The notes: a model not told the origin generated them from the sequence alone. Counted from the stretch's first letter, positions 89 to 18,888 are shown. The stretch: DNA of 24,205 nucleotides from Candidatus Nanohaloarchaea archaeon (GCA_042218325.1 JBDGRE010000022.1:1-24205), one strand, 5' to 3'. Made by a program: numbers and translations.

Positions 89-1078
89 GTGAGGCCAGAA
101 GCCGTAGAGGATATGCTGGTAGCGGAACTCGAGGAAGTGATCGGAGAGGTACAGGACGCATGGGAGCTGGAGGAGGGCCTGAACACAGTCTACGTACTTG
201 AGACCGGACGAGGGGAGTATGTGCTGAAAGCGCGCACCAACGACCGGAACGAACTCTCCTGGTTCAGGGCCGAGCCCCGGATATACTCCATGCTTGAAGA
301 CCGGGAAAACGTGCCGTCGCCGAGGGTCCTGTATACCGACCTTTCCCGCGAAAGGTATGAGAACGCGTTCTATGTCATGGAAAGGCTGGAGGGCCGGAAC
401 GCCGATTCTGTCCGTGATGAGATGAGTGAGAGGCAGCTCGAGCTCGTGCTCCGGCAGTACGGCCGCATACTTGGCGAGATACATTCAGCACACAGTTTCG
501 AGGGTTACGGGATGCTGGCCGGCGAGGCGGGGGAGCTGCGTGTCGAGGATGCCGCAGAGATTTGGCCGTGCGCGCTGGAGGGCTCTACGGACTCATGGAT
601 AGAGCGGATAGAGGACGGCTGGGAAAACGTGGAAATCGGCCGGCCATCTGAAGAAGAGATAAGGGCAACCGTGCCCGGTGACCCAGGCGCATCCCTGGCC
701 CACATGGATAACAGGCTGGACAACCTGCTGGTAAAGGACGGCGATATAACCGGTTTCCTGGACTGGAGCCACCCGGAGACGGCGGACCCGGAGTACGACC
801 TTTACACGGCCGAATACCTTCTCATCGACTGGGACCTTTCGTTCAGGGAAGAGCCTGTAGACCACGAGAAGATGCGGGAGGCGCTTTTCAGTGGCTACGA
901 AGAAGCCCGGCCGCGGGAGGAGGTGTCCCGGGAGCGGAGGCGACTGTACCGCTACGCGACCGTCCTCTGGCTCATGTCCGGCTTCCTGAACTGGGGGTCG
1001 GGCTTTCCAGAAGAGAAGAAGCGCCGGTTCAGGAAAGACCTCAGGGAAAGGTTGGAACGTGAAAAACCGGGGCTCTAA
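89..1078 (+). CDS. Aminoglycoside phosphotransferase / choline kinase-like (APH family) protein
   Basis: N-lobe 'GLNTVYVL...EYVLK', Brenner motif 'HMDNRLDNLL', metal-binding 'GFLDW', then 'ADPEYDL'. Start is GTG 89 or ATG 113. Confidence 0.85.
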   Translation: MRPEAVEDMLVAELEEVIGEVQDAWELEEGLNTVYVLETGRGEYVLKARTNDRNELSWFRAEPRIYSMLEDRENVPSPRVLYTDLSRERYENAFYVMERLEGRNADSVRDEMSERQLELVLRQYGRILGEIHSAHSFEGYGMLAGEAGELRVEDAAEIWPCALEGSTDSWIERIEDGWENVEIGRPSEEEIRATVPGDPGASLAHMDNRLDNLLVKDGDITGFLDWSHPETADPEYDLYTAEYLLIDWDLSFREEPVDHEKMREALFSGYEEARPREEVSRERRRLYRYATVLWLMSGFLNWGSGFPEEKKRRFRKDLRERLEREKPGL

Positions 1079-1106
1079 GACCTGGAAGGTAATGTGGCAG
1101 CGACCA

Positions 1107-1114
1107 TATTAAAA
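1107..1114 (+). promoter_or_regulatory. TATA box of the MMPL operon
   Basis: TATTAAAA about 30 nt upstream of the start of the MMPL-like reading frame, in a locally AT-rich gap. Confidence 0.55.
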
Positions 1115-1120
1115 GGTTTG

Positions 1121-1145
1121 TGTATAATAGTTGAACAAAATTACA
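1121..1145. promoter_or_regulatory. Palindromic operator, copy 1
   Basis: TGTA-TAATA-GTTGAAC-AAAAT-TACA. Same spacing as the copies at 7794-7818 and 8159-8183. Lies between the TATA box and the coding region. Confidence 0.75.
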
Positions 1146-1148
1146 TAA

Positions 1149-2178
1149 GAATTTCTCGAGAGGGTCACAGAGATACAGGAGGAACACGCCCTGGAAGTTT
1201 TCCTCTTCTTCCTTTTCCTGACCGTGGCGATGGTCCCCAGCATGGGAAGAGTAGAGACCATCGTTGCGCTGGAGAACATGATGCCCTCGAGTTCCACCCC
1301 GGTCGAAGGTTTCAACGACCTGCGAGCAGAAGGAATAGGCAAGGACTCGATAGCCGTCGTGGTGCGGACAGGTACCAGCGACGAGGGCCCGGAAGTACAT
1401 CGACTACCTCAGCAACGAGACCGCGGACATATACGGTGTCACCACCGTCTACAACCCGCTGGAGCGGGAAGGTCTCGTGGACAGGAAGAAGCAGACCGCG
1501 GTGATAATCGCCAATACTTACATGGGTGACTCGGGCAAGGAGATGGGACGCATATTCGAAGAGGTACGGGAAGAATCAGGTTACAACAGACCGGAGGGAG
1601 TCGAGACCCAGGTATCCGGCGTTCCGGCGGTCCAGCAGCGTCTTTCGAGCATGGTTGAGCGGGACAAGAACGTCAACACGGCGATATCGCTTGTTCTCGT
1701 CTTCCTCATCACTCTATCGCTGTTCCAGGGATCTCTTACTTCCTCCCTGATGCCGCTACTTGTCGTGGCGCTCTCGGTGGTCTGGCTCTACGGGACGATG
1801 GGGTATCTCGGTATCCCGCTTTCGACGCTCGCAGGGTCCGTTGCCGCCCTGGTCATAGGCATCGGTATCGACTACTCGGTGCACATACTCAATACCTACA
1901 GGTTCCACAGACGCGACAACACCATCTAGGAGGCGCTCTCTGAGGCAGTAGGTGAGACAGGTGTAGCCATCGTGGCGACCTCCATAACCACCATCAGCGC
2001 ATTCCTTGCGTTCCTGGCGGGGAAGATGCCCGAGATGCACCGGTTCGGCCTGATAATGTCGATAGGTATCGGCTACGCGCTGCTCTTCAGCTTCTTCCTT
2101 CTCCCCAGCGTCTTCGTGCTTGAGGAGCGGCTGATCCAGAAAATCCATGAATCAGTCGAGTGGAGGCACGATTTCTGA
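1149..2178 (+). pseudogene. Disrupted half-size MMPL/RND-family transporter
   Basis: Reading frame EFLERVTEIQEEHALEVFLFFLFLTVAMVP... has no start codon (TAA at 1146-1148). A frameshift near 1390 leads to KYIDYLSNETADIYGV..., with the MMPL motif 'IGIGIDYSVHI'. An in-frame TAG at 1927-1929 is followed by EALSEAVGETGVAIVATSITTISAFLAF, ending at TGA 2178. Confidence 0.85.
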
Positions 2179-3239
2179 TGATAGTGGAAGACCTCGCGGC
2201 ACGACTCGTCGAGTACCAGGTGGAAAACCCTTACAGGATGCTGGCGATACTCGGGATGCTGACCCTCGTGGCTTTACCAGGCATGACACAGCTGCAGGTG
2301 AAGCCGAGCACCGAGGCCATACTGCCCTCGGACGACCCCGTCGTGGAGTCGCTCGACACACTGAGAGCGAAGTTCTCGGCCGACACCACCTACGTGGTCA
2401 TCCAGTCGGGTAACGATGTTAGGACTCACGAAACCATGCAGAAGCTGCTCAGGATAGAGAGAAGGATAGAGCTACAGGAGAACGTGGCCGCCGTCAACTC
2501 TCCTGCCTCGATACTGCAGCAAAAGTACGGTGAGATACCACGGGACGCGGACAGGCTCGAGAACACGGATTACGGCAACCTGGTGACGGGTGACTACCGC
2601 ACCGCTGTCGTATCGGTCCGCGCCGACACCCAGGCGAACTCCGGCGAGATAGGGAAGCTCCACGACAGCATAATCCAGGTAGTGTCGTCCGAGAGCCCCG
2701 GAACCGGGTATTACCTGACAGGCTACAATATGATAGACCTTGCGACGTTCCAGGTCATCATCAGGGACTTCATGAGGATAACGCTCGTTTCGTTCGCCGC
2801 CGTCACGGCGGTGCTGTACGGGGTCTTCCGGGACCTGGAGAGGATGTTCCTGCCTATGGTCCCTGTGATGTTCGCACTGGTGTGGATGCTGGGGCTCGGG
2901 GGATACCTGGGGGCCGACCTGACCATCATCTCGATGGTTTCGGCCGCTATGATAATGGGTCTCGGTATCGACTTCGGCATCCACGTCACGAAGAAGTACT
3001 ACTCGACTTCCCGGGGGAGGGAAGGACTCTCCGAGACCATGACCGAGCTCTCGAGGGGGCTGCTGGGCGGCTCCATGACCACGGGCGTTGGCTTCCTGGC
3101 GCTGCTGTTCGCCAACCTCTCAGGTATGCACTCTCTCGGCATATTCCTTTTCACAGGTATAATGTCGGCCTACGTGGGCGCCGTGTTCCTGCTTCCAACC
3201 CTGATAACCCTTGTAGACGGCACAGAGCCGGTCGCATGA
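2178..3239 (+). CDS. Half-size MMPL/RND-family transporter
   Basis: N-terminal TM helix, extracytoplasmic loop, then about 5 TM helices with 'MGLGIDFGIHV' and 'GSMTTGVGFLAL'. ATG 2178 overlaps the upstream TGA (TGATG). Confidence 0.9.
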   Translation: MIVEDLAARLVEYQVENPYRMLAILGMLTLVALPGMTQLQVKPSTEAILPSDDPVVESLDTLRAKFSADTTYVVIQSGNDVRTHETMQKLLRIERRIELQENVAAVNSPASILQQKYGEIPRDADRLENTDYGNLVTGDYRTAVVSVRADTQANSGEIGKLHDSIIQVVSSESPGTGYYLTGYNMIDLATFQVIIRDFMRITLVSFAAVTAVLYGVFRDLERMFLPMVPVMFALVWMLGLGGYLGADLTIISMVSAAMIMGLGIDFGIHVTKKYYSTSRGREGLSETMTELSRGLLGGSMTTGVGFLALLFANLSGMHSLGIFLFTGIMSAYVGAVFLLPTLITLVDGTEPVA

Positions 3240-4534
3240 AAATAGATGCTATGAAACGAACCACACACTTCGGAATCAAGTTCGCACTCGAGATCACAAC
3301 CCTCCTATCAGTTACAGGGACCGTTTCCGCGGTCCCACTGCTCGACGCGGTGAGCTACGACCCTGCCTTCATAACGGCGGGAGACCGCGTAAACATCTCG
3401 GCCAACCTCCACGAGACACAGACGACGGAGAGCTCGTGGAACCCCGACAGGCAACTGAAGGTGGTCCTGGTGCCGGACAACCGCCTGGCGGAGGAGTACG
3501 TCACCATCGAGGACGCCAGGGACGAGTCTATCGGCTTCCTCTATCCTGACGGCGTCTGGAACCAGAGGTTCCAGGTAAGGGTGCACAGCGACGCACCTAC
3601 GGGTAAGTACGATTTCGAGCTCCACATCCAGTACCTCGAAAACGGGGAGCCCGTCAAGATCCAGACACGGGACGGGGGCACCACCCTCACCTACGTCGAG
3701 GACTTCACGATATCGGTCGACAACGAGTGCGTAGACCTCACCACAAACGTCCTGGAGACGGAACCGTCGGTTCCGAGGCCGGGAGACGACCAAGTCGAGA
3801 TGCAGCTCGAGTTCACCAACACCGGGAACAAGCCGGTAGAGGATATCGAGCTGCTGCCCCGGACCCCGGAACACGTTACGCCTTCCTTCTCGGGCGACAA
3901 GAAGTTCTATGTGGACAGGCTCGACCCGGGAAAAACATCCAGGAAGACTCTCTCGCTCGACCTCGACGAGGAACTGGAGCCCGGCCTCCACCGCGTCAAC
4001 ATATCTGCCAGCTACGAGGACGAGGACGGCAACCCCTACTCCGAGCAACTCGACGCACCTCTCAGAGTCGAGGGCCGGCCTGACCTTGAGCTAGTCGGCT
4101 CCGGCACAGAGATGAAGGCAGGCGAGACCTCACAGCTCCGGCTGAAGATCCGGAACAGAGGCGCACAGGACGCCGAATCGGTCACGGCCCGAGTCATAGC
4201 GGAGAGGACCCAGCCGTTCTCGCTGGCCGACCGCTCCAGCTACATCGGGGAGATAGAGGCCGGTGAAACGGCAGCGGCGATCCTCGACGTGAAGGCCGAC
4301 CGTTCAGCTACACTCCGCACACACCAGCTCAAGATCCAGCTGCGGGCGAACGGCAACTCGGAAGAGGGAGACCATTCAGTCTATACCTTCACGGAAAAGG
4401 AAGAGGTCAAACTCACAGGAAGGACCCGTTCCCTCCTGGTATACGCCGGTATAGCGGCGACCCTTCTGGTGCTCGCCGCCGCGGCCTACCGGTACGGGAA
4501 AAAACCCGCGAGAACCGGGGGAGGTGAGAACTGA
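3236..4534 (+). CDS. COG1361 / S-layer-domain (CARDB/Ig-like repeat) membrane-anchored protein
   Basis: Signal-like N-terminus, repeated Ig-like motifs ('LEFTNTGNKPVEDI', 'LKIRNRGAQDAESV', 'YIGEIEAGE'), C-terminal TM helix with basic tail. ATGA overlap at 3236. This family commonly sits next to archaeal RND genes. Confidence 0.8.
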   Translation: MKIDAMKRTTHFGIKFALEITTLLSVTGTVSAVPLLDAVSYDPAFITAGDRVNISANLHETQTTESSWNPDRQLKVVLVPDNRLAEEYVTIEDARDESIGFLYPDGVWNQRFQVRVHSDAPTGKYDFELHIQYLENGEPVKIQTRDGGTTLTYVEDFTISVDNECVDLTTNVLETEPSVPRPGDDQVEMQLEFTNTGNKPVEDIELLPRTPEHVTPSFSGDKKFYVDRLDPGKTSRKTLSLDLDEELEPGLHRVNISASYEDEDGNPYSEQLDAPLRVEGRPDLELVGSGTEMKAGETSQLRLKIRNRGAQDAESVTARVIAERTQPFSLADRSSYIGEIEAGETAAAILDVKADRSATLRTHQLKIQLRANGNSEEGDHSVYTFTEKEEVKLTGRTRSLLVYAGIAATLLVLAAAAYRYGKKPARTGGGEN

Positions 4535-4719
4535 TGAGAAGCAAGAAGAAGTTCATGAGGAGGCTCGCCGGCACCATGGTAACAGCAGGATTCATAGGAG
4601 GATGGTTCATCCACCCGTACATCTACCTGCACGACCTTTTCGTCGGCCTCAACATTCTGCAGAGCTCCTTCACGGGTTTCTGCCCTCCAGAGGACTTCTA
4701 CGACAGGTACCTCGGGTAG
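4534..4719 (+). CDS. DUF2892 / YgaP-like small membrane protein
   Basis: 'RRLAGTMV...FVGLNILQSSFTGFCP' signature. RBS GGAGGTGA at 4520-4527. Confidence 0.85.
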   Translation: MRSKKKFMRRLAGTMVTAGFIGGWFIHPYIYLHDLFVGLNILQSSFTGFCPPEDFYDRYLG

Positions 4720-4723
4720 AACG

Positions 4724-5851
4724 TCAGCCAAGAACCGCTATCTCCCTGAGCGCGGACAGGAAACCCTCGATGTCGTCCTCGCTGTTGTAGAGGTGCAGCG
4801 AGGCCCTCAAAGTCGGCCGCTCCCCATGTGACTCGAACCAGGAATGGACGCAGTGCATGCCAGACCTTACGGCGATATCACGCTGGTCGAGCATGAGCGA
4901 GGCCTGGTTCGCACCGAGGTTCCCGACGCGGAGCGATACAACTCCCGGCGCCTGGGAGCCGACGTTCTCGACGCCTCCGATATCATATATTCCACTGTAG
5001 AGCCTCTCCGTCAGCTCTTTCTCGTGCTTATGGATTTCCGACATGCCGATTTCCCCCAAGTACTCCGCAGCCTCGCCGAATCCTATGATGCCGGCGATGT
5101 TGGGAAGCCCTGATTCGAAGCCATGCGGGAACTCCTTCCGGTCGTGCGTCCTGAAAGCAGAGCTCCTCACGCCGCCACCACCCAGCTTCAGCGGCTCCAC
5201 GCTGTCTTTAACCCGGTCAGCGACGTAGAGGGCTCCAGTTCCCGAGGGTCCGAGCATCTTGTGACCGGAGAACGCGACGAAGTCTGGGTCGATTTCCCTA
5301 ACGGAGAAAGGACGGTGAGGTATGCTCTGGGCCGCGTCCACCATGAAGTGCGCCCCCTTTTCCTTCACGACTTTCGAGACCTCCCGGACCGGTATCTCGT
5401 GGCCGTCAAGGTTCGACACGTGGACGAGCGAGACGAGGTCACCCTCCCGTAGCTCCGATTGAAGGCGGGCGACAAAGTCGTCGCCTGTCTCCACGACCTC
5501 TACACCGGCAGGGGAGCGCTGCCACGGCACCAGGTTGGAGTTGTGCTCCCTATCCGAGACCAGGACGCGGTCGTAGTCGAAGCCGCGCGCGACCGCGTTG
5601 ATGGACTCCGTGGTACCGGAGGTAAAGGCCAGATTACCGCGGTCTGCGTCGATGAAGCTGGCGATGCGCTCCCGGGCGTTTTCCATCTTCTCCGTCGCGG
5701 TCTCGGAGAGCTCGTGGTTGCCCCTTCCCGGGCATGCAGGATAGTTCTCGTAGTACTCTTCGACCGCTTCTATCACCCTGTGAGGTCTCAGCGACATGCA
5801 GGCGCTGTCCAGGTAGACCTGCTTGAAATCCGGGAAGTCCTGACGTCTCAT
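4724..5851 (-). CDS. sufS: Cysteine desulfurase, SufS-like (class V PLP enzyme)
   Basis: 'VYLDSAC', 'EHNSNLVPW', 'VDAAQS', PLP-lysine motif 'FSGHKMLGP', catalytic Cys in 'VRSGMHC', 'LRASLHLYN'. ATG 5851 overlaps the upstream stop. Confidence 0.9.
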   Translation of the reverse strand: MRRQDFPDFKQVYLDSACMSLRPHRVIEAVEEYYENYPACPGRGNHELSETATEKMENARERIASFIDADRGNLAFTSGTTESINAVARGFDYDRVLVSDREHNSNLVPWQRSPAGVEVVETGDDFVARLQSELREGDLVSLVHVSNLDGHEIPVREVSKVVKEKGAHFMVDAAQSIPHRPFSVREIDPDFVAFSGHKMLGPSGTGALYVADRVKDSVEPLKLGGGGVRSSAFRTHDRKEFPHGFESGLPNIAGIIGFGEAAEYLGEIGMSEIHKHEKELTERLYSGIYDIGGVENVGSQAPGVVSLRVGNLGANQASLMLDQRDIAVRSGMHCVHSWFESHGERPTLRASLHLYNSEDDIEGFLSALREIAVLG

Positions 5852-6255
5852 CCCGTGACACCCGCCAGACTTTTTGCAGAACCCACTGCGGTGTTGAGAA
5901 GGGGGGAGCCGGCTTCCAGCGAGCAACCGCCCTGGGCCGCGGCGCCCGCGCAGTTGCCGTAGACCACGTAGTTGAACAGGCTGAACGCGGAGTAGGCGCC
6001 GGTCAACAGCAGCGCAATGAGGAGAACCCAGCTGAACAACTCGAAATGCCGGCTGAGAATTTTCGCTGCCCGGGGACTGTAATCAAGCGTCTTGCCGATG
6101 ACGGAGGCCTTGACACGGTCCTCCGGATCAGTCTCGCAGGGCTCCCCTTTCACTCGGCGGGTGACGCAGTCAAACGCCTCCGCCGCGAGAGCCCTGTGAC
6201 TGGCCGAGAATATCCCCAGTATGCCGAATACCAGCAGCGAGAGCAGGCATATCAT
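5848..6255 (-). CDS. Cys-rich hypothetical membrane protein (2 TM)
   Basis: Hydrophobic N-terminus 'MICLLSLLVFGILGIFS', second TM 'LFSWVLLIALLL', five Cys. Translationally coupled to the osmC-like gene and sufS. Confidence 0.75.
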   Translation of the reverse strand: MICLLSLLVFGILGIFSASHRALAAEAFDCVTRRVKGEPCETDPEDRVKASVIGKTLDYSPRAAKILSRHFELFSWVLLIALLLTGAYSAFSLFNYVVYGNCAGAAAQGGCSLEAGSPLLNTAVGSAKSLAGVTG

Positions 6256-6683
6256 CAGTTCAAGATGCTCAAGTCCACCGGGGTCTCGTGGCTTATGTTG
6301 TCCCTGACCGGGCAGCGGTTCTCCGCTTCCTCGAATACCTCTCTCAAGACGTCCTCGTCAGCGTCAGACTCCACATCGACCTCGAGTTCTATGCCCTTGA
6401 ATCCGGCCCGGTCGCCTGTTTCCTCACCCTGGAACTTGGCAGGGTTGAGCTCGCCCGACGCTGTTATTGTCAGGCCGTACATTTCGACCCCCCTTTCCTC
6501 CGCCACGAGGTGCGCGACGACGTTGAAGCAGCCGGTGAGTGCGCCCAGCTCGTACTCAACGGGGTTGGGTGCGGAGCCGGTCCCTCCATGCTCCTCGGGC
6601 TCGTCGACCTCGAAGCTGTAACCCCTGACGTTTACCTGTACCTTGGTCGGGTTCTTGCTCTCTGCTATTACTTCGGCTTCCAT
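6255..6683 (-). CDS. OsmC/Ohr family protein
   Basis: 'VDEPEEHGGTGSAPNPVEYELGALTGC' and second Cys in 'AENRCPVRDNI'. Confidence 0.92.
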   Translation of the reverse strand: MEAEVIAESKNPTKVQVNVRGYSFEVDEPEEHGGTGSAPNPVEYELGALTGCFNVVAHLVAEERGVEMYGLTITASGELNPAKFQGEETGDRAGFKGIELEVDVESDADEDVLREVFEEAENRCPVRDNISHETPVDLSILN

Positions 6684-6809
6684 GTTATCATATAGGCTTC
6701 TGTACCACGGAAATAAAACCGGTCTGGTAGAGGATTCAAACTACGGAGAAGTTCCACGACTTCAAACATCCGGAAAACGGGTGAAGATCTTCAATTAAAT
6801 CAGCAGGTT

Positions 6810-7488
6810 TCACATTTTTCCTCTCACAAGTTCCACTTCATCCGCTTCCCGCCAGTAACGGAAGTTGTCGCTGAAGCTGTCGATATAGGAATTGGGATCC
6901 AGCGAGGAGACTTTCCTTGCGTCCGCAACCGCCGCGTCTATCCGTGAAGGTGGCAGTTCTTCCTGGAGGCGCTCAACCACCATGTCAAGAGATTCGCCGG
7001 TATCGTAGTAGTCATCCACCACGAGAAGATTACCGGCGCTATCAGGTTCCTCTATGAATTCCAGGCCATAAGCCCTTCATGCCCCCGGCGAGAGGCATCT
7101 ACGCTGTAGACTTCGACTCCGTGAAGGAGGCCTGCAGCCTTCGCGAACGGATCGCCGCTGAAATCCACACCCACTATCTTCATATCCTCGGCAGGTCCTC
7201 TCTTTCAAGCCTCCACAGGAAATTATCGATCTTCGTCTCATCGAGAGGGTCGAACCTGTAATCATCCAGATCTGCAGTAACGGCTGTCTCATCCGGCTCT
7301 CTCAGTTCATAGGGCGTCTCCGGGAAATCGAACCCCAGTCTATCGTCGAGAAAATCCCTGTACAAAGGTCGGAGAGTATCAGGTCTTTCCTGGACCTGTG
7401 AAACAGCGGCTTCGCCGCTGTAGAAAAGCTCCTTGGCCTTCCGGTACTGCGACCAGGCTATCTTGACATCCTCAGGGCCCGAAACCAG
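6810..7488 (-). pseudogene. Frameshifted type I phosphoribosyltransferase
   Basis: Three collinear frames: LVSGPEDVKIAW...LEREDL, shift near 7186 to (E)DMKIVGVDFSGDPFAKAAGLLHGVEVYSVDASRRG, shift near 7075 to AYGLEFIEEPDSAGNLLVVDDYYDTGESL (PRPP-binding motif). No ATG; CTG at 7488 follows a TAA by one codon. Confidence 0.7.
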
Positions 7489-7541
7489 GGGTTAAATCCT
7501 GCTCTCAAATCTTTTTATCGGGCTGCGGAAAAAGTAAGAAT

Positions 7542-7787
7542 TCAGGCTCCCTGCTTTTCTATGGCCTGTTCTATCTTGGCAGACTGGAAGCCCACGACCG
7601 CGGTGTCGCCGATTAAGGTCTGGGGTACACCGCGCTGTCCTGTCTTCTCCACCATCTCCTTCGCTTTCTCGCGGTCCTCGGCCACGTTGTGTTCGATGTA
7701 GTCGTAGCCGTTCTCCTCGAGCCACTGCTTGATCCTGGTGCAGTAAGGGCACGAAGGCGTAGTGAAGACTTCTATGTCCTCCTTCAT
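7542..7787 (-). CDS. Glutaredoxin-like / NrdH-redoxin
   Basis: 'FTTPSCPYC' active site, 'GQRGVPQTLIG', 'VVGF'. Confidence 0.93.
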   Translation of the reverse strand: MKEDIEVFTTPSCPYCTRIKQWLEENGYDYIEHNVAEDREKAKEMVEKTGQRGVPQTLIGDTAVVGFQSAKIEQAIEKQGA

Positions 7788-7793
7788 AATATG

Positions 7794-7818
7794 TGTAACT
7801 ATGTTGAACTTTTATACA
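7794..7818. promoter_or_regulatory. Palindromic operator, copy 2
   Basis: (G)TGTA-ACTAT-GTTGAAC-TTTTA-TACA(C), 6 nt upstream of the glutaredoxin ATG. Confidence 0.75.
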
Positions 7819-7826
7819 CGTTATGG

Positions 7827-8156
7827 TCAGAGGTCTTCGAGGACCTCGAGCCTGTCCTTCTCCCACTCCTCCATGCGGCGTTCTATCTCGGCCTTCAGAT
7901 CTTGCTTGTCAGGCACCGAGTACACGTAGTACCGGCCGCGCTTGCCTTCCTCGACCACCCCCTCCCGTTCTACAAGCCCCGCGCTTCGCAGCTTCGAAAG
8001 GTAGCGCTGCACAGTGGAACGGTCTTTTCCAAGCTCGTCCGCGATATCCGAGGCCCTGGCCTCGTTGTCGCAGAGATAGTACATGACCTCGGTCTCGGAG
8101 CCGGAAAGGTTGTAAAGCAGTTTCAAAAGCTCCTTTATCTCGGAAGGACACCTCAT
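7827..8156 (-). CDS. Winged-HTH transcriptional regulator, TrmB-like / COG3355 (OxsR-like)
   Basis: 'ASDIADELGKDRSTVQRYLSKLRSAGLVER', wing 'GRYYVYS', C-terminal dimerisation helix with conserved W. ATG 8156 (MRCPSE) is preferred because the upstream extension overlaps the operator. Confidence 0.88.
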   Translation of the reverse strand: MRCPSEIKELLKLLYNLSGSETEVMYYLCDNEARASDIADELGKDRSTVQRYLSKLRSAGLVEREGVVEEGKRGRYYVYSVPDKQDLKAEIERRMEEWEKDRLEVLEDL

Positions 8157-8158
8157 AG

Positions 8159-8183
8159 TGTAAAACTGTTCAACAAGATGTAA
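8159..8183. promoter_or_regulatory. Palindromic operator, copy 3 (one arm degenerate)
   Basis: TGTA-AAACT-GTTCAAC-AAGAT-GTAA, 2 nt upstream of the regulator's own ATG. Confidence 0.65.
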
Positions 8184-8198
8184 AACGCTTTCCACGGG

Positions 8199-17238: not shown

Positions 17239-18888
17239 CTAGAATTTCTTCACCTCGGTGTTTCTTGTCTTGTAGTCTACGAATGTTACGAGGCCGGGCT
17301 GGGGCTCGTGGCCGACGCGTTTCTGGAAGTCGGTCTGCTGCTGGAACGTCGAGGCGCAGATGACGTTGACGCCTTTGTAGCTCTCGTTCGCGTGGCTGTG
17401 GAAGTGGCCGCTCGCGAGGATGTCCGGCTTCCTGACGATGACGAGGTGGTCCTCCTCCTCTGGCGACAGGAGGTTGGAGCCGTAGGTCGGCGCGAGATGC
17501 CGCCGCTTCAGCAGGTCTATCATGACGTGGTGCGGGTCGTCGTACGCCTTCTCCCGCAGCTCCTGTATCTGGTCGACGTGGTCGTCGAAGCTGTAGCCGT
17601 GGTAAATCAGGTTCATTATGCCCTTGCTCCTGATGCCGTGCAGGCGGACGTACTGCGGGTTCTGGACCAGATGGACGTTTTCCCACTGGCTCATGTTCGG
17701 CAGCGCCTTTTCAGGTAATGCGGGCTGGGGCTCGGCGAGCCTCACGACATCGTGGTTCCCCGGCCCGATTATGATTTCAAGGTCGTCGGGCAGCTTCTCC
17801 GCCCACTCCTCGAACCGAGCGTACTGCCTGTAGATATCCGTTATCTCGAGCTCTTCTTCCTGGCCAGGGTATGTCCCGACACCTTCGACGATGTCGCCCG
17901 GGATTACGAGGTAGCCGACCTTCTTCGCCTCGTCGCTGTTGAGCCAGCGGGCGAACTTGTCCATCCGGTCGTACATCGTATCCTTCGAGCCGACGTGGAA
18001 GTCGGATATGTACGCCGCTTTAACTTTCTCGCTGGTGGTGTTGACGCCGTCCGGTATCGGCAGGTCGGGCCGGACGACAGAGTTTGCGAATATTATGTCT
18101 TCTCCCATCGAACCACGGACGCCTATGACCTCGTCGGGAACTATGCGGTCCCCGTCTCTCTCATCGATCAGCGCCTTGAAGGTGCCGGTCTTGTCCTCCA
18201 GCTCGATGATGTACTTCCCGCTACGGGTGGAGTATTTGTCCTTCACCAGGCCGACGGTGGCGGCCTCCTCGCCCTCGTCACGGCGGTCCAGCCGCTGGAT
18301 GCTGACTGCGGACTTCATCTCCATCCGCTGCATCAGTATCTTCTTCATCCTGTCGTATCGGTCGTTGTAGTACTGCAGGAACTCCGGCACATCTTTATCC
18401 TCCTTCGAGATATCCGCCTGGTCGAGCACCTCGACCTTGGTCCGGAGGTCCCGGGAACCTGTGTCTCTCATAGTTGAGGCCGGCCGCTGGACGTCCTGGT
18501 CCACGTCGCCCGGGTTCGGATCCTGGGCGGGGCTTCCTTCACCCTCATCGACACCAGTGTCAGCGGCTGCATCTGTTTCCCCTGTCGCGTCCTCTTCTTC
18601 CGTGTCCCCGACGTTGCTGTCGTCTACGGCGGCCTCTATCTCACCGGGGACCTGTTCCCTGTCTTTCTTCACCATGAGTTTCTGGTCACCGCTCTCCACC
18701 TCTGTCATCTGCTCCTGCAGCTTCTCGTGGTCCTCCCGGAGCCGTGAAAGCATCGGCTCCGTGATGTACATCGGCGGAGAATCAAGGGCCTCTATACGCT
18801 CGAGGTCCTGCTCTGTTATCTTTTCTGCAGCATCTTTTTCTACGATGCAACCCTTCTGTGTTAGCTGTTTTACTGCTTTCTCGTTCAA
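17239..18888 (-). CDS. polB: DNA polymerase D small subunit DP1 (proofreading exonuclease)
   Basis: OB fold 'IIELEDKTG' and metallophosphoesterase motifs 'ISDFHVGS', 'GDIVEGVGTYPGQ', 'PGNHD', 'YHGYS', 'RRHLAPTYG', 'GHFH'. TTG start after GGGAGGGT. Confidence 0.95.
   Translation of the reverse strand: MNEKAVKQLTQKGCIVEKDAAEKITEQDLERIEALDSPPMYITEPMLSRLREDHEKLQEQMTEVESGDQKLMVKKDREQVPGEIEAAVDDSNVGDTEEEDATGETDAAADTGVDEGEGSPAQDPNPGDVDQDVQRPASTMRDTGSRDLRTKVEVLDQADISKEDKDVPEFLQYYNDRYDRMKKILMQRMEMKSAVSIQRLDRRDEGEEAATVGLVKDKYSTRSGKYIIELEDKTGTFKALIDERDGDRIVPDEVIGVRGSMGEDIIFANSVVRPDLPIPDGVNTTSEKVKAAYISDFHVGSKDTMYDRMDKFARWLNSDEAKKVGYLVIPGDIVEGVGTYPGQEEELEITDIYRQYARFEEWAEKLPDDLEIIIGPGNHDVVRLAEPQPALPEKALPNMSQWENVHLVQNPQYVRLHGIRSKGIMNLIYHGYSFDDHVDQIQELREKAYDDPHHVMIDLLKRRHLAPTYGSNLLSPEEEDHLVIVRKPDILASGHFHSHANESYKGVNVICASTFQQQTDFQKRVGHEPQPGLVTFVDYKTRNTEVKKF

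Follow-up and report, generated by a model that had tools for sequence, protein, structure and literature searches.

Why should two exact copies of a 25-bp palindrome lie on one contig of a nanohaloarchaeal genome, one just before a glutaredoxin gene (grx) and the other at the head of an MMPL exporter operon, with a degenerate third copy before the gene of a small winged-helix regulator? The window analysed here comprises bases 1 to 24,205 of contig C15 from a Candidatus Nanohaloarchaea archaeon (genome G000, 1,072,872 bases in 35 contigs). For comparison we used a set of 70 genomes of the same order, which are related to one another and hence are not independent samples; counts across them are descriptions, not statistical tests. 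We consider, with a probability of roughly 0.55, that the three sites would serve as operators of one small, locally encoded regulon, a reading that comes from sequence comparison. The elements on which it depends are as follows.

1115-1148, no strand assigned: predicted operator site 1, GGTTTGTGTATAATAGTTGAAC plus right arm; matrix match 1115-1137, palindrome 1121-1145
7788-7819, no strand assigned: predicted operator site 2, GTGTA-N5-GTTGAAC-N5-TACAC at 7793-7819; 27.3 bits; exact palindrome
8153-8185, no strand assigned: site 3, upstream of the regulator; one mismatch to TTGTGTAANNNNGTTSAAC; 11.0 bits
1104-1114, plus strand: TATA-like box of the MMPL operon promoter, ATATTAAAAG, centred about 30 nucleotides (nt) before the former start codon
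7542-7787, minus strand: glutaredoxin (grx, CPYC), 81 amino acids (aa); Pfam Glutaredoxin 1.6e-18; NCBIfam YruB-family 84.1 bits, below the cut-off of 88.55
7827-8156, minus strand: regulator, 109 aa, winged-helix; Pfam HTH_5, MarR_2 and TrmB, all above cut-offs

Rarity and promoter position of the sites

The first-pass annotation had reported exact copies of TGTA-N5-GTTSAAC-N5-TACA at 1121-1145 (site 1, TGTATAATAGTTGAACAAAATTACA) and 7794-7818 (site 2, TGTAACTATGTTGAACTTTTATACA), and both the sequences and the coordinates proved correct; these are the two exact copies in the entire genome. When up to two mismatches were allowed, matches in the window remained confined to the same two places, and none of 100 dinucleotide-preserving shuffles of the window yielded one. 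The core GTTSAAC is by itself ordinary, with six occurrences in the window against 2.58 expected, a number that 6 of the 100 shuffles reached, and 163 occurrences genome-wide. A 23-column scoring matrix, built solely from 29 sites in other genomes, placed site 1 (28.1 bits) and site 2 (27.3 bits) at ranks 1 and 2 in the genome, while the next match scored 16.6 bits and the reversed genome, which served as chance control for the matrix, gave a maximum of 16.5. The other matrix matches of at least 12 bits, at C16:9775 (16.6), C3:13658 (16.2), C8:34882 (14.5) and C11:13082 (13.7), are no better than the reversed-genome control and have no clear target gene, and were rejected as regulon members. 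The first of these, the third-best match in the genome (G000:C16:9775-9797, AAGGTGTGTAAATTTGATGAACT), is intergenic and lies 3' of a TTTATAAAG box, its downstream gene not being clear.

Site 3 (8159-8183, TGTAAAACTGTTCAACAAGATGTAA) has a degenerate right arm. It differs from the palindrome by three mismatches and matches at 5 of 8 arm positions, a tie with three other cores. Measured against the asymmetric sequence TTGTGTAANNNNGTTSAAC, it carries one mismatch, a level at which the genome contains four matches in total, namely the three sites with site 1 counted in both orientations. The revised pattern that accommodates site 3 with one mismatch is TTGTGTAA-N4-GTTSAAC.

All three sites are close to coding starts, as had been claimed: from the end of the site to the ATG there are 6 nt at site 2 (grx, ATG at 7787) and 2 nt at site 3 (regulator, ATG at 8156), while the codon with which MMPL half 1 formerly started (1140-1142) is overlapped by site 1. 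A peak of AT content near -30 from start codons is the signature of leaderless haloarchaeal-type promoters. In G000, for which 586 crude gene calls supplied both the promoter profile and the control upstream regions used below, AT content peaks at -30 to -24 from the first ATG (0.57-0.63 vs about 0.46), with a smaller peak at -11/-10. The TATA-like boxes of the grx, regulator and MMPL promoters fall in the -30 to -24 zone, in each case with the site downstream of the box. In particular, the grx promoter reads TATAAAA at -29 to -23, GTTCAAC at -22 to -16 and TTACAC at -11 to -6, and the regulator promoter, on the minus strand, reads TTTTACA at -29 to -23, GTTGAAC at -18 to -12 and TTACAC at -7 to -2. 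At the MMPL promoter the site is enclosed between TTAAAA and the former start codon, which are about 30 nt apart, and orthologous MMPL loci have (A)TTAAAAAG or CATAAAAAG at the same distance. The earlier statement that the copies lie over the expected transcription start agrees with this TATA-to-ATG placement at all three promoters and in most loci of other genomes; two grx loci, weighed below, have another placement.

Occupying the TATA/start region is the usual way in which archaeal repressors work, and a protein bound here would overlap with both the TATA box and the start of transcription, the position of a repressor. A precedent is SurR of Thermococcales, for which sites downstream of TATA repress (PMC12162507).

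Conservation of the site and its link to the regulator gene

The palindrome with at most one mismatch occurs at 21 distinct sites in 16 of the 70 genomes, while the reversed pattern, our control across these genomes, gave 0. The sequence TTGTGTAANNNNGTTSAAC with at most one mismatch gave 44 matches in 26 of 70 genomes vs 5 control matches. Thirty of the 40 such matches outside G000 adjoin a regulator orthologue or precede an MMPL1 orthologue. A further match, in G006, lies between a divergent thioredoxin-reductase-like gene (a pyridine-nucleotide-disulfide oxidoreductase of that size) and a thioredoxin-like gene, and two more, in G009, lie before an unsplit MMPL gene and before a DUF2892 gene. 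For 7 of the 40 (G008 C82, G009 C37, G012 C75, G020 C13, G035 C20, G049 C33 and G054 C38) no link was evident, a number about equal to the control count of 5.

Before grx, the site is kept in 19 of 30 regulator loci, G000 included, where the stretch reads (G)TGTATAAAAGTTCAAC-N4-TTACACAAACT-ATG and the farther flanks are not alignable by eye; L009, L020, L022, L025, L026 and L030 have variant sites or other arrangements. Before MMPL half 1, it is present in 13 of 17 orthologous loci, reading (A)TTAAAAAG-(A)GTTTGTGTAA-N4-GTTSAAC-TAN-ATG, while two loci are without the site and two are cut by contig ends. The element common to the two promoters is AGTTTGTGTAA-N4-GTTSAAC, which has opposite orientations relative to transcription at grx and at MMPL, an inversion in keeping with a DNA site rather than an RNA element. 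There is also a second arm, TACA(C), under constraint from the features that it overlaps, the TATA-like box at grx (TGTATAAAA) and the start and first codons at MMPL (ATGTCACAG or ATGCAACAG). The site is longer and less symmetric than the palindrome, and one half holds most of the information. We also observed that one contig of sequencing run X2 resembles the window over 7784-7819 only, both flanks being unlike, and in that stretch the operator is the piece common to the window and a co-occurring relative.

A regulator match at E <= 1e-15, the threshold used for orthologue-like proteins, is found in 37 of the 70 genomes, and the best 25 are 63-80% identical over all 109 residues. With both patterns combined, the site is carried by 25 of these 37 genomes vs 4 of the 33 without such a regulator, and all four of the latter matches are dubious, since they either lie within open reading frames (ORFs) or have spacers rich in GC. 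All 18 genomes with an MMPL1 orthologue (E <= 1e-56) also have a regulator orthologue. In five regulator-less genomes, distant grx-like genes (29-36% identity) were found in four, none with the site (best score 6.6 bits), a comparison confounded by the lack of a close grx. The single-contig genome G032, the nearest of the relatives listed and of the same genus as G000, is without an MMPL1 orthologue and the motif, and its best regulator-like gene is 36% identical; the module is thus patchy even inside one genus. Locus L094 (G048:C39) contains a paralogous module, consisting of a second regulator copy (58% identical) with its own grx and its own site (TTGTGTAATAATGTTGAAC).

The exporter genes that follow site 1 are the following.

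1140-2178, plus strand: MMPL half 1, pseudogene; ATG>ATT at the start, TAA at codon 3, frameshifting 26-nt deletion after 1384, TAG at 1927-1929
2178-3239, plus strand: MMPL half 2; Pfam MMPL 1.1e-16; orthologues 66-70% identical in 6 of 6 loci
3236-4534, plus strand: NPCBM_assoc/CARDB secreted or surface protein; Pfam; same position in 6 of 6 loci
4534-4719, plus strand: 61-aa YgaP-like transmembrane (DUF2892) protein with a GFCP cysteine; PF11127 23.7 bits, cut-off 25.3; same position in 6 of 6 loci

In this series the stop codon of each gene overlaps the start codon of the next: TGATG (2176-2180) joins MMPL half 1 to half 2, ATGA (3236-3239) joins half 2 to CARDB, and CARDB and DUF2892 overlap at 4532-4536. 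MMPL1-MMPL2-CARDB-DUF2892 therefore looks like one operon. The four genes are intact as an operon in all six longer loci, five of which have the regulator followed by grx, with OsmC after grx in two of the six. The operon is divergent from the regulator in G046, G058, G063 and G064, adjacent to it in G057 and G026, and 3-11 kb away in G000, G003, G033, G052, G053 and G055. The order in G021 and G022 is site, grx, DUF2892, regulator, and in G012 the site is flanked by a grx-regulator operon on one side and, on the other, by a divergent thioredoxin-reductase-like (trxB-like) gene. More distant relatives have the site ahead of thioredoxin-reductase-like and thioredoxin genes. The linkage of site and regulator holds in every gene arrangement seen.

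The winged-helix regulator and the proposed circuit

The regulator scores 48.3 bits with Pfam HTH_5, 38.7 with MarR_2 and 38.2 with TrmB (PF01978; cut-off 25.6). All 30 orthologues fetched start at the equivalent of the ATG at 8156, with M/V-x-C, which fixes the gene start and hence places site 3 upstream of the regulator. All of the 30 orthologues, and all of 120 family proteins, have the same two cysteines and no others: Cys3, in the N-terminal tail, and Cys29, where helix 1 ends. The AlphaFold2 (AF2) model (mean pLDDT, the predicted local distance difference test, 91.9) contains helices at residues 5-15, 19-30, 35-42, 46-59 and 84-108 and strands at 63-68 and 75-80, that is, an N-terminal helix, a wHTH (winged helix-turn-helix) with its wing and a long C-terminal helix. 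Foldseek returned 3R0A (E 4.8e-8, TM-score 0.75) and 6CMV (6.2e-8, TM-score 0.79) at the top, with Sto12a (2D1H) also among the best, and a 26-sequence profile searched against the PDB likewise matched AbfR2 (6CMV, 1.2e-14) and MM_1094 (3R0A, 6.7e-10) best. Homodimer predictions scored 0.31, 0.33 and 0.29 vs a mark of 0.42.

Family names in the protein collection are generic (ArsR, MarR or TrmB family, 'predicted transcriptional regulator'). As to ArsR/SmtB, the protein passes the generic Pfam HTH_5 alone and scores 34 bits vs a cut-off of 55 with NCBIfam HTH_metalloreg. The Lrs14/Sta1 models (NF040939, NF053606) are the best named families, yet they too stay below their NCBIfam cut-offs (Sta1 65.0 vs 80, Lrs14 58.1 vs 90). 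Searches of the literature on nanohaloarchaeal glutaredoxin or oxidative-stress regulators and on Lrs14 redox control returned no title or abstract start describing the regulator family.

Three known systems bear on what this protein might do. The first-pass annotation had called it OxsR-like, after OxsR of Haloferax volcanii (HVO_2970, TrmB family), a single winged-helix protein of about 110-125 aa with a thiol-based mechanism that is needed for induction of a glutaredoxin (hvo_0337; PMC9426492). OxsR was assigned to arCOG02242 in that paper, in which 'COG3355', the class named in the first-pass annotation, does not occur (PMC9426492). The TrmB match above cut-off and the fold of 3R0A and 6CMV, on which OxsR was modelled, agree with this name. 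OxsR forms a disulfide in the N-terminal helix zone (PMC9426492), and disulfides in or near the N-terminal helix are also described for MM_1094 (3R0A) and Sto12a (PMC9426492, PMC11841832). Cys3 would fall at about the position of MM_1094 C6, counted back from the start of the alignment, the residue itself being outside the aligned stretch. OxsR C24, however, aligns with MM_1094 C17, an equivalence taken from PMC9426492 and not from a direct OxsR alignment, and in our alignment the 3R0A cysteine ('...vikCaln...') falls on regulator position 13, which among the 120 family proteins is occupied by V (116), L (3) or T (1). The motifs differ as well: that of OxsR is CG-rich (CGGnCGnGCG) and mostly upstream of BRE/TATA (PMC9426492), whereas the nanohaloarchaeal operator is AT-rich. 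The regulator is thus of the OxsR fold class without the OxsR cysteine, and 'OxsR-like' is apt for the fold and the Pfam family and inapt for the C24 position and the operator motif.

Members of the Lrs14/Sta1 family (AbfR2, 6CMV; Sto12a, 2D1H) share the architecture of H0, wHTH and long H4, some have H0 disulfides (PMC11841832), and 6CMV is the best PDB sequence match of the regulator with the profile. They differ in their cysteine positions, and they are described as crenarchaeal, abundant and largely non-specific binders (PMC11841832), whereas the regulator gene studied here is accompanied by a specific conserved site.

By analogy, SurR is the closest system in logic. It is a winged-helix cysteine redox switch that binds when reduced and releases when oxidised, its gene shares operator sites with the divergent, glutaredoxin-like pdo, and TrxR-Pdo re-reduces it (PMC12162507). 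A GTT...AAC core motif is common to both systems. In contrast to the single domain and Cys3/Cys29 of the nanohaloarchaeal protein, SurR has two wHTH domains and a CxxC at 24 and 27; its motif is GTTn3AAC(n5GTT), as opposed to a GTTSAAC core with one central base and TGTAA/TTACA arms; and it controls hydrogen and sulfur energy metabolism (PMC12162507). SurR structures were absent among the 11 PDB sequence matches of the regulator at E <= 0.001.

From the sites, their rarity, conservation and promoter position, their co-occurrence with the regulator, and the fold and invariant cysteines of that protein, we infer protein binding to the sites, repression and a redox signal. The regulon would most likely be governed by a repressor with a thiol switch, akin to SurR and OxsR and hitherto undescribed in nanohaloarchaea. 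In the circuit that we propose, the 109-aa protein would bind, probably as a dimer, a partly palindromic site of about 25-29 bp with the consensus AGTTTGTGTAA-N4-GTTSAAC-N4/5-TACAC, located in front of mostly leaderless genes, downstream of the TATA-like box and ahead of the start codon. Once bound, the protein would deny TBP/TFB or RNA polymerase access to the promoter, and would thereby repress grx, the MMPL1-MMPL2-CARDB-DUF2892 operon and, more weakly, the regulator gene. Oxidation or thiol modification at a Cys3/Cys29 switch would release the protein and derepress thiol-repair genes, and glutaredoxin (thioredoxin reductase in relatives) would re-reduce it, as in SurR/Pdo. The proposal that the regulator controls both a glutaredoxin and an export/surface module 6.5 kb away thus gains sites that are conserved before grx and MMPL half 1, while its binding step stays a prediction. 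Because the exporter operon of G000 is headed by a dead gene, grx and the regulator are the only arms that are certainly still functional as targets.

Several observations weigh against this reading. At 11.0 bits, site 3 lies inside the range of the reversed-genome control (top scores 16.5, 15.7, 12.2 and 11.1), and so of the claimed third copy the sequence, place and degenerate arm stand and a score above control does not. The grx site of G033 (L016) and G031 (L023) lies upstream of a TATA-like box (TTTTAAG or TTTATAAG), itself some 28 nt ahead of the grx ATG. For OxsR, DNA binding improves on oxidation, with a dimer as the binding form, which is opposite to the polarity proposed here (PMC9426492), and the Lrs14 family, to which the regulator's best sequence match belongs, is described as largely non-sequence-specific (PMC11841832). 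Genomes either have the module (regulator and grx, in most cases together with the MMPL operon) or lack it as a whole, and with such co-inheritance co-occurrence cannot separate a site bound by the regulator from one that travels with the cluster. Finally, upstream regions of the regulator scoring at least 5 bits number 6 of 30 (7 if the G000 site is counted; the scan window clipped site 3, so its value comes from the whole-genome matrix scan) vs 1 of 586 control regions. These regulator regions share TTTTACATCTTG-TTGCACAAAC, a strong half-site plus a TATA-like box, and in other genomes the regulator lies in an operon behind a full site or is divergent from the MMPL site. In G000 the regulator could plausibly be controlled through a site of its own; with few orthologues keeping a dedicated site, the autoregulation suggested at the outset is the weakest part of the regulon.

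The same protein and site might instead operate by another logic, with better binding when oxidised, dual activation and repression as in OxsR, or a signal other than redox, for example a metal, a sulfur species or a ligand from the host. OxsR, of the same fold class, sets an example, in that its C24 disulfide-linked dimer binds DNA and both activates and represses (PMC9426492). The grx site of G033 and G031 is in an activator-type position, HTH_5 (ArsR) is the best Pfam match, and DUF2892 and the MMPL exporter are without a proven redox link. However, the site lies between TATA and start in most loci, where an oxidised protein, once bound, would shut down grx and the trxB-like gene at the time of need; most of the targets are thiol-disulfide genes; and the OxsR cysteine position is not conserved. 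Metal-site residues were not identified, although no search aimed at them was made. On balance, we regard such other logic as unlikely.

An alternative that dispenses with specific binding by the regulator holds that the motif is a promoter element of a mobile or co-inherited cluster, read by another factor or TBP/TFB pair, and that the 109-aa protein is a travelling Lrs14-type chromatin protein. Lrs14 proteins bind non-specifically with a preference for AT-rich promoters (PMC11841832), and the whole module is present or absent together. The same-genus G032 is without a regulator orthologue, MMPL1 and the motif. Yet the site accompanies the regulator when its partners change (the trxB-like gene of G012, the C39 paralogue of G048, and G043-G045 at 39-45% identity), the NCBIfam Lrs14/Sta1 models stay below cut-offs, a dimeric winged-helix protein would be well matched by a palindrome whose core is self-complementary, and no other regulator gene is consistently nearby in the loci examined; this explanation appears to us quite improbable. 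The idea that the conserved sequence works in the RNA, as a leader or as a translational operator, draws on the fact that the sites touch or overlap start codons. Relative to the direction of transcription, however, the asymmetric half changes strand between grx and MMPL, most of the site precedes the likely leaderless transcription start, and Rfam at gathering scores gave no match in the whole window. Conservation by chance is countered by the shuffles, the reversed genome and the reversed patterns, which gave 0-5 matches where 21-44 were observed, and together RNA-level action and chance have only a very slight probability.

To return to the thiol-switched repressor, it is possible, and we put it forward tentatively, that Nanohaloarchaeota have their own thiol-switch regulator family, with Cys3/Cys29 in place of the OxsR cysteine, which would link thiol repair (Grx, TrxB-like reductase) to an envelope module (split MMPL exporter, CARDB surface protein, DUF2892 cysteine membrane protein), the exporter arm being also switched off at the strain level. 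If true, these ectosymbionts would have their surface or export activity under redox control. Gene regulation in DPANN is almost undescribed, and their small genomes hold few regulators. The present finding gives a concrete regulator-operator pairing in which the two cysteines are obvious mutation targets, and by record names cultivated nanohaloarchaea carry close homologues of the regulator. It would extend the SurR/OxsR theme of cysteine-switched winged-helix regulators to Nanohaloarchaeota, with another cysteine geometry and another operator and with no new principle.

The decaying MMPL gene and neighbouring features

Orthologues of MMPL half 1 start with ATG-TCA-CAG three bases past the core, whereas the same codons in G000 are ATT-ACA-TAA (1140-1148). 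Compared with the 355-aa orthologue of L107, the gene further shows a frame change near 1387 and the TAG at 1927-1929; it is otherwise 70-82% identical, and the piece at 1477-1929 matches Pfam MMPL. A sister strain, represented by contigs of two other runs of the same study (X2 and X3, depths 59 and 49), has G at 1142 (ATG), C at 1146 (CAA), G at 1927 (GAG) and 26 extra bases after 1384. Over 1000-3582 it shows 27 other letter differences in addition to the 26-base gap, and it is about 99% identical over the aligned 2.6 kb. Contigs of runs X4 and X5, the latter from another study, have the window form across 1384, with no gap, and do not cover the other three lesions; because they share the deletion at 1384, it is genuine rather than an artefact of assembly. 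A single base, the T at 1142, abolishes the start codon and at the same time perfects the TACA arm, and gene decay thus accounts in part for the perfect symmetry of site 1. Despite this decay of MMPL half 1, site 1 is still the best match in the genome. The sister strain has A at 1115, the consensus base of the site.

MMPL is encoded as two half-genes of about 355 aa, whose stop and start codons overlap, in the window and in L048-L063 and is unsplit, at 768-819 aa, in G009, G012, G022, G024 and G044. Orthologues of the DUF2892 protein pass the PF11127 cut-off at 32-33 bits. In the literature on DUF2892 we found no title or abstract start bearing on function.

Two further genes between the operon and grx came from the general Pfam scan.

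4724-5851, minus strand: class-V aminotransferase
6255-6683, minus strand: OsmC-like protein

Elsewhere in the window, ARAGORN made a single, doubtful tRNA-like call at 18463-18534, with an undetermined two-base anticodon and no Rfam tRNA match at the gathering score. Between OsmC and grx (6684-7541) there are short minus-strand ORF pieces in different frames, at 7180-7365, 7052-7183 and 6810-7022, and the two pieces of this stretch that were scanned gave no Pfam match. The sister-strain contigs have one extra G after 7189, and the sequence suggests that 6684-7541 may hold a second strain-specific frameshifted gene.

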